A stretch of DNA of 64,000 bases from Eledone cirrhosa. Lineage: Eukaryota. The DNA lies in the NCBI GenBank assembly GCA_964016885.1, contig OZ024743.1, positions 216,256,001 to 216,320,000 of the forward strand. Reading direction: 5' to 3'. The notes under the pieces are model-generated. The model searched no databases. It was not told the DNA's origin and was given only the letters and a program-made list of their open reading frames with translations. The position numbers and the translations under genes were made by a program. Positions 38,773 through 39,980 of the stretch are shown piece by piece (the stretch's first letter is position 1; each line of letters starts with the position of its first letter).

Positions 38773-39980
38773 AAAAGACGTAAAATAAGAAAGTATTTTT
38801 AAAAAAATTTTTTTAAAATTTTTACTTACTTACTTAAATTTTCACTCCAACTAATTAGTTTCTGCAATGGGATAAAGACAGTTACGTAATCCAACTGTCG
38901 AGAATTCATTGCGTCATCAGGGAGTCTATTCTCAGCTGAGTCTCCAGGCAATGCGCGGACACTGGCGGCTCATATAAAAATAATAACTCGGTAGATAGAA
39001 CAGCTGGCGAGGACTGGATTCTATGTACTGAAATTCTCACTGCTTCTAGTCAAATGGCCGATTCTAAAGAATCAATCACGTGACACAGAGGCTAGTTAGA
39101 AGGAATGGGATGGTAAGATGACTGACGCCTACTAACACCCCAAAAAATTTGGAAGTGGTTTTGGCAGGTTTGCTCGACAAATCAGTGATTTGGAGATAAA
39201 TATAGATAATTTAATATATCAACTAACATAAGCGCACAAATTTAAGTAAGTAAGTAAAAAAATTTTAACAAATTTTTTAAAAAATATTTTCTTATTTTAC
39301 GTCTTTTATATTATTGTTCTGCATCCTCCTGCATTGAACAACCTAGGTACTATAACATAACCTGTGTATTTGCTGGCATGGACGTGCATCTGTGCGCTTA
39401 TGTTAGTTGATATATTAAATTATCTATATTTATCTCCAAATCACTGATTTGTCGAGCAAACCTCCCAAAACCACTTCCAAATTTTTTGGGGTGTTAGTAG
39501 GCGTCAGTCATCTTACCATCCCATTCCTTCTAACTAGCCTCTGTGTCACGTGATTGATTCTTTAGAATCGGCCATTTGACTAGAAGCAGTGAGAATTTCA
39601 GTACATAGAATCCAGTCCTCGCCAGCTGTTCTATCTACCGAGTTATTATTATTTTTATATGAGCCGCCAGTGTCCGCGTATTGCCTGGAGACTCAGCTGA
39701 GAATAGACTCCCTGATGACGCAATGAATTCTCGACAGTTGGATTACGTAACTGTCTTTATCCCATTGCAGAAACTAATTAGTTGGAGTGAAAATTTAAGT
39801 AAGTAAGTAAAAAATTTTAAAAAAATTTTTTAAAAAATATTTTCTTATTTTACGTCTTTTATATTATTGTTCTGCATCCTCCTGCATTGAACCACCTAGG
39901 TACTATGACATAACCTGTGTATTTGCTGGCATGGACGTGCATCTGTGCGCTTATGTTAGTTGATATATTAAATTATCTCT
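38773..39980 (+). mobile_element. Family J: inverted copy plus 1.3 tandem units of a ~550-bp HHR module in (TA)n
   Basis: 38773-39240 is the reverse complement of ~39390-39862; 39238-39425 is repeated from 39791. Confidence 0.9.
39707..39788 (+). ncRNA. Type I hammerhead with extended stem II; mirror copy on minus at 38844-38925
   Basis: actcc-CTGATGA-cgcaatg...cattgca-GAAA-ctaattag-TT-ggagt; GUU site. Confidence 0.88.

Follow-up and report, generated by a model that had tools for sequence, protein, structure and literature searches.

The 64-kb window analyzed here (the whole stretch of 64,000 nucleotides from Eledone cirrhosa) is AT-rich animal DNA, rich in microsatellites and transposon fragments. 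Within it, an insertion that we call J occupies about 1.2 kb and has (TA)n on either side, at 38632-38773 on the left (presumably the target) and at 39980-40021 on the right. A target site duplication is unreadable in this (TA)n. The rightward part of J is a tandem arm at 39238-39979, which consists of 1.34 copies of a 553-bp unit with a GC content of 37%. There is a first full unit at 39238-39790 (+) and a partial second unit at 39791-39979 (+), and the last ~115 nt form a tail that is present at this end only. The direct repeat created by this arrangement (39238-39424 versus 39791-39977) is identical at 182 of 187 positions. The leftward part is an inverted, 5'-truncated arm at 38769-39241 (-), which self-comparison identified as a copy of 39388-39864 (468/473 identical, with 4 gap columns; 5 substitutions and 2 indels in all). 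It stops at the equivalent of 39864, where a 25-nt block (39840-39864, + in the tandem arm) forms its 3' end and is followed by (TA)n. The tandem arm ends 115 nt beyond that point.

A first-pass annotation of this DNA had proposed that J has the inverted-plus-tandem layout of a Penelope-like element (PLE), with nearly identical arms and no coding sequence, and our coordinates agree with each of these points. The longest stop-free frame in J is 50 amino acids, and an open reading frame (ORF) for reverse transcriptase (RT) and GIY-YIG endonuclease was absent from the stop-free frames examined. The annotation had also concluded that the insertion is young. A recent origin is supported, but arm identity dates J only loosely because inverted arms can be homogenized. 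Directly to the left of J, a small separate inverted insertion at 38240-38637 shares its (TA)n tract. It has hammerheads on opposite strands (38523-38588, +, and 38362-38427, -) and a ~70-nt extension at one end. We take a repeat at ~41850-42030 to be SINE-like. A scan found no tRNA.

The J unit contains a type I hammerhead ribozyme motif at 39707-39788 (+), with a 5-bp helix I, CUGAUGA, a C.A mismatch, and GAAA. This corresponds to the type I core (CUGANGA ... GAAA ... UH) with helices I to III and with its ends joined in helix I. Helix II has 6 bp and encloses a 37-nt insert, and helix III is the palindromic ACUAAUUAGU. GUU is at 39781-39783, and cleavage is predicted after 39783, 81 nt before the 3' end. 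A second, antisense hammerhead is in the inverted arm at 38844-38925 (-); both are intact and identical. The unpaired 10.1-11.1 position at the base of helix II, also seen in the first pass, is C.A in J and A.A in a diverged sister array (see below). This mismatch does not exclude a type I hammerhead because published PLE hammerheads show the same exception: PLE-X1_cBra has C.A before G-C, and the majority of the Hydra-clade elements have U.U (Craig 2021 Fig. 2 and File S2, in the accessible portion of PMC8557442).

No Rfam hammerhead model reached its gathering score across the window, and no hammerhead family was among 60 matches down to an E value of 10 in the region 37800-45800. A motif scan found 12 such hammerhead motifs in the window, from approximately seven families, and none in each of 10 shuffles. 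Because the J motif escapes Rfam, the number of hammerheads in genomes of this kind may be underestimated. Minimum-energy folding recovered helix II together with the hairpin inside it. Recovery of the full three-way core was not consistent, and this core did not form in the folds of the J hammerhead alone or of the whole unit.

Two features of J bear on how the ribozyme might be used. The tandem arm starts at the eighth base past the equivalent of the predicted cut site. A start in a 10-nt zone there has a chance of ~2%, which is suggestive, although this is a single case and the sister array starts mid-unit. Also, all 82 hammerhead bases pair with the antisense copy in the predicted foldback of a J locus transcript. 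This pairing suggests that a read-through transcript would lock the J ribozyme into a 470-bp hairpin and that, without transcription from an internal promoter, the J copy is probably silent as a ribozyme. CACGTG followed by GATTG occurs at 39545-39565, ~150 nt upstream of the hammerhead, in J and in most sister copies, and it is a possible candidate for an internal promoter element.

Other hammerhead-bearing insertions are scattered through the window. Family K is represented at 50745-51242 (-) and 16590-17109 (-) by two ~85% identical copies with a unit of ~490 bp and the same boundaries in (TA)n. Its hammerheads (50808-50891, -, and ~16700, -) contain a helix II region of 53 nt as well as a candidate pseudoknot, and K is likely to be a distant relative of J. 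Family M (17266-18757, -) has two hammerheads ~990 bp apart, at 18445-18569 (-) and 17454-17578 (-). Both cores are intact, with a U.U base mismatch, a 96-nt helix II region containing two hairpins, and a candidate 5-bp pseudoknot. Other insertions with an inverted or tandem structure are at 22105-22558, 37796-38092, 47383-48279, and 14175-15165, and short canonical type I hammerheads are at 22375 (+), 37918 (+), and 47554 (-).

The window also contains PLE coding remnants. At 57100-59800 (-) there is a frameshifted Hydra-type PLE with remnants of RT and of a C-terminal GIY-YIG domain and a CxCX5C linker; DKT and RWK are present in its homologues. Its layout is that of J: a 124-bp 5' arm is inverted (59655-59778 versus 57205-57328), (TA)n lies on both sides, and a degenerate motif resembling a hammerhead is near the 3' end, at ~57230-57260. 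Enzymes of this kind are therefore present in this genome, but the element has no terminal sequence in common with J. A degenerate PLE-like RT region at 11227-14150 (+) has a minimal hammerhead-like remnant at ~14035-14066. Six of seven window ORFs, including the PLE-like ones, had no Pfam match. Outside the window, we found Hydra-type PLE ORFs (L001-L013), several with flanking hammerheads, in records titled as bacterial metagenome-assembled genomes or a symbiont genome. These sequences are likely to come from the animal hosts. Viral contigs scanned with a Hydra protein yielded 31 candidates, none of which was confirmed.

Absent from the first-pass annotation was the finding that helix II of J is 50 nt long and branched. 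An 8-bp distal hairpin is nested within it at 39733-39755 (+). On the 5' side of helix I, a leader (GAGAAT, 39699-39704, +) is complementary to ATTCTC on the 5' side of the helix II internal loop (39727-39732, +), and the two are predicted to be candidate pseudoknot strands. The complement is 6 bp in J and 7 bp in copy B of the sister array. J was the case in which this feature was discovered, and therefore families K and M serve as tests. Family K has the same arrangement (6 bp), with one pair changed from U-A to G-C, and the unrelated family M has a different 5-bp complement at the equivalent place. The chance of this geometry is ~0.3% when the complement has 6 bp and 1% when it has 5 bp. 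A complement of at least 5 bases was absent from all of the hammerheads found in 13 Hydra-type loci of other animals. The candidate helix is weak (-4.3 kcal/mol), and sister copies A and C have changes that break or weaken it. (The sister copies were read one by one; the aligned columns are one base off register, which makes their 50% pairing uninformative.) The branched J hammerhead is probably pseudoknotted, but the complement could instead form a competing fold.

Compensatory variants of the distal hairpin occur in public reads. A contig from run X5 covering 39697-39797 has two fully compensatory changes, G-C to U-A at 39733/39755 and C-G to U-A at 39735/39753, and a G.U to A-U change at 39740/39748. 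The same letters were found in approximately a quarter of the reads of run X24 (53/222 at 39733 and 57/225 at 39735). Approximately one in five public reads also varies at 39764 and at 39767, but the 40 rows listed, out of 127, include no change at the partner positions.

The first-pass annotation had also described a diverged sister of J at 43.8-45.7 kb, and the two are indeed only 68-71% identical. The sister is an array of 2.8 units of 528-529 bp at 43808-45282 (-), with copies that are 87-93% identical to each other and with flanks that are not (TA)n. Its hammerheads are copy A (45011-45092, -), copy B (44483-44563, -), and copy C (43954-44035, -). At the inversion junction there is an unrelated ~160-bp filler (45283-45443, +), followed by an inverted 5' arm (45444-45662, +) that stops just short of the hammerhead. 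The filler has a 48-amino-acid frame and a (GAT)n tail at its end. Its sequence is similar to the 3' terminus of RTE-type LINEs, which could reflect capture by template switching; its peptide had no homologue among 10 candidates. Downstream of the inverted arm (45662-46400) there is a frame at 46021-46386 (-) that is similar to the end of a Helitron helicase and may have truncated the arm.

The invariance of stem I, core, and stem III that had been claimed for the sister is true of copy B, the only intact one. Helix I, core, and helix III of J and copy B are identical at 31/31 positions, compared to 312/471 outside the hammerhead (Fisher P = 4.7e-6), and so the hammerhead is more conserved than the rest of the unit. 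However, copy A has a C3>U change, and in copy C four positions of the core and helix III are altered (27/31 versus 308/471 outside the hammerhead; P = 0.008). Helix II changes in sequence and still pairs, as GCAATG/CATTGC in J and GAAAG/CTTTC in the sister. The proposed in-window covariation exists at 2 of 6 helix II pairs in two lineages, but it is weak by itself, and 37 of 500 shuffles matched it. Selection on the ribozyme, the conclusion drawn in the first pass, is evident between families but not within the sister array, where departures from the majority were as frequent in the core (5/93, 5.4%) as elsewhere (42/810, 5.2%; P = 0.81). This background rate of decay suggests that selection acted on transposing source copies rather than on inserted ones. 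Ribozyme constraint therefore appears to be lineage level, with inserted copies decaying neutrally. The longest identical run between J and the sister is outside the ribozyme. It is the 25-nt block at 39840-39864 (39287-39311 in the first unit), which is as conserved as the ribozyme and is likely to be an end-recognition signal.

We compared the reads or contigs of 4 public runs with one J unit, leaving out the small-share runs X10-X20. Part of the unit is in 20 of the 24 public runs listed; none of these is recorded as RNA, which makes them uninformative on expression. The family is high copy. There were 1,326 matching contigs in run X1, with identities from >99% to <90%, and 8,117 of 12,467,656 reads in X24 matched the unit. 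The head-to-tail unit junction was present in 4/4 runs compared, and therefore the noncoding tandem unit is a family trait. Both J arms share three bases that are not in the majority among the reads (39478, 39642, and 39694). At 39464 and 39679 the tandem arm alone departs, and the inverted arm has the family-majority base. This pattern is consistent with one template lineage for both arms, followed by ~1% divergence. None of the 39 variable sites listed fell within the 31 core positions, a result with a chance of 0.08 to which we give no weight, as 87 of the 127 rows were outside the listing. The inversion junction specific to the J locus did not appear in the 4 runs, and this carries no weight for presence or absence either, because the junction adjoins a stretch (39805-39844) that the comparison skipped. 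Pile-ups or loose ends in X24 at 39482, 39594/39597, 39729, and 39974 were considered as element ends and rejected as library artifacts, because they coincide with AATT sites of the unit. Those at 39643 and 39866 were rejected in the same way, since they fit AATT sites that would be made by family variants.

The best explanation, to which we assign a probability of roughly 85%, is that J is a nonautonomous, retrozyme-type PLE retrocopy. It would have been made by the RT/endonuclease of a PLE that lies elsewhere, likely one of the Hydra type, which targets (TA)n. J has the structure of a nonautonomous PLE derivative: the layout, the tail, the 3'-proximal hammerhead, and the (TA)n location. In the accessible text of PMC8557442, the PLE layout is a partial tandem beside which lies an inverted, 5'-truncated copy, with one end carrying a tail, and insertion is biased to (TA)n. 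An RNA longer than one unit would be transcribed from a tandem source locus, and a borrowed PLE enzyme would nick both strands of a (TA)n tract. Two cDNAs could then be primed at internal start points ~115 nt apart, giving the ends at 39864 (3') and 39979 (tail), and their head-to-head joining would produce the inversion. We favor two nicks and two starts because a lizard PLE behaves in this way in vitro (PMC11167929). The enzyme of that element, Poseidon PAc from Anolis, nicks AT-rich targets on both strands, and two internal RT starts make the tail. Selection would keep the ribozyme and the 3'-end block in source copies, and inserted copies would decay neutrally.

Some observations do not fit this explanation so well. 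Published tails measure 30-40 bp, and that of J (~115 nt) exceeds them. An autonomous element with the terminal sequence of J did not emerge from the window, the 13 Hydra-type loci, or the supplement compared. J had no blastn similarity to the ORF-bearing PLEs of the window, and blastn against 13 Hydra-type loci gave one 27-nt match, to the sister only. Four J motifs had no matches in the Craig supplement (PMC8557442), in the accessible portion of which line wraps can hide matches.

The alternative that survives best is a true circular RNA retrozyme, in which self-cleavage of tandem source arrays yields 553-nt monomers, these become circles, and rolling-circle reverse transcription over more than one unit made the 1.34-unit arm. 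Such a model was proposed in the accessible text of PMC4209133. J and its family look the part, as noncoding tandem units that each have one type I hammerhead, with head-to-tail junctions in all four runs and a GC content within the <45% given for non-LTR retrozymes in the portion of PMC7229834 that is available. However, the 187-nt repeat has 5 differences between its two copies, whereas copies made from one circle would start identical (later mutation can explain this). In addition, the predicted circular fold is only 66% paired, and the 5' inversion is a PLE insertion signature. We regard this model as possible but distinctly less probable than a PLE retrocopy.

It is unlikely that J is no more than what 5' truncation left of a full-length autonomous PLE, namely its 3' end, and not a separate nonautonomous family. 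Most PLE copies are 5'-truncated terminal repeats, according to the accessible text of bioRxiv 10.64898/2026.07.22.740005, PMC8557442, and PMC4209133, and 142 of the 1,326 X1 contigs fit the J unit only partly. However, the tail leads directly into the next hammerhead segment, with no ORF, in J, the 2.8-unit sister, K, and 4/4 runs. We consider a DNA-level origin (a foldback or MITE-like transposon or a replication template switch on a satellite) or an assembly palindrome to be very improbable. A near-perfect 470-bp inverted repeat with TA flanks could be produced in these ways, but the repeats are not terminal at both ends, with 115 extra nt on the right. Moreover, the arms are not identical, the inverted arm has the family-majority base at the two positions noted above, and the same layout occurs in unrelated hammerhead-bearing elements of the window. 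Selection of the J ribozyme for a host function is hardly credible, even though both hammerheads are intact and identical, because an intact 82-mer is expected by chance at ~1% arm divergence, sister copies decay neutrally, and the foldback would sequester the ribozyme.

As a likely nonautonomous PLE retrocopy, J is an ordinary insertion, one of several such in the 64-kb window, with a ribozyme that is a modest variant. The layout, the insertion into (TA)n, the palindrome in helix III, and the mismatch at 10.1-11.1 have all been published for PLEs or retrozymes, and they recur in the window. Even so, the core, the extended helix II, and the probable pseudoknot have been kept over ~30% divergence, which argues that propagation of the unit needs the ribozyme. 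A bolder proposal is that J, the sister, K, and M represent an undescribed animal architecture. In this proposal, a Watson-Crick pseudoknot would hold a branched 50- to 96-nt helix II against the 5' leader. Such a hammerhead would be missed by Rfam and by short-loop descriptors, and it would cleave efficiently as a monomer and set the 5' end of the transposed RNA. We consider the full proposal doubtful, but if it is true, these families are a high-copy natural system to test what PLE hammerheads do. The role of hammerheads in PLEs is described as unclear in the accessible text of PMC8557442, and the hammerhead was dispensable for PAc insertion in vitro (PMC11167929). We did not find the J family, or its combined fold in an animal retroelement, described in the literature; published PLE dimer-cleaving variants may include it. 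The word "ribozyme" is absent from the main text of PMC13282606, on Octopus vulgaris repeats, and two metagenome pattern scans gave no matches. We also considered J as a Naiad "HHR half-core" element and rejected this, because its 3' end is unlike that of Naiad_Ovul (consensus inspected by eye and motif search).

J and the sister share with non-LTR retrozymes the tandem noncoding units with one type I hammerhead each, the low GC content, and PLE-type termini, and the J unit is within the 51 to 972 bp given in the available portions of PMC7229834 and bioRxiv 10.64898/2026.07.22.740005. The latter argues that non-LTR retrozymes are nonautonomous PLE derivatives, and in it 8/9 Xenopus retrozyme dimers failed to cleave. 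Unlike retrozymes as described there, both J and the sister have a 5' inversion and a helix II far longer than canonical, and they are known here from DNA. In that preprint a retrozyme counts as active if two consecutive units have complete hammerheads, whereas J has one per strand and the sister has one intact out of three; the J and sister loci would be offspring copies. Pairs of opposite-strand hammerheads 100 to 700 bp apart, and families full of compensatory changes, are described in the accessible text of PMC4209133.

The Hydra clade, which has an Octopus member (Hydra-1_Obim), inserts in (TA)n and resembles J in its inverted 5'-truncated copy, one-ended tail, and 3' hammerhead (PMC8557442, accessible text). 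Hammerheads of the clade have a helix I of 4 to 7 bp, a base mismatch, and a helix III of ~4 bp. However, their helix II loops are 3 to 10 nt, compared to 37 to 38 nt with an inner hairpin here, and J differs from the clade in having no RT/endonuclease ORF, the mark of an autonomous PLE, and no sequence match to the elements listed. In the accessible part of File S2 of the same paper, two plant-lineage elements come close to the J hammerhead in one respect each. PLE-X1_cBra has the same C.A before G-C at the base of helix II, and PLE-X1_sMoe has a long loop 2; the table annotates a leader pseudoknot for neither. Approximately 40% of surveyed hammerheads, including all three topologies and one human example, are predicted to be pseudoknotted (PMC3088659 and PMC11300833, accessible text), likewise by a Watson-Crick link between the helix I and helix II regions. 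Here, in contrast, the candidate partner is the 5' side of an internal loop, within a branched helix II and in an animal retroelement. Finally, PAc is an autonomous element with a minimal, protein-assisted hammerhead (PMC11167929), whereas the J unit is noncoding.
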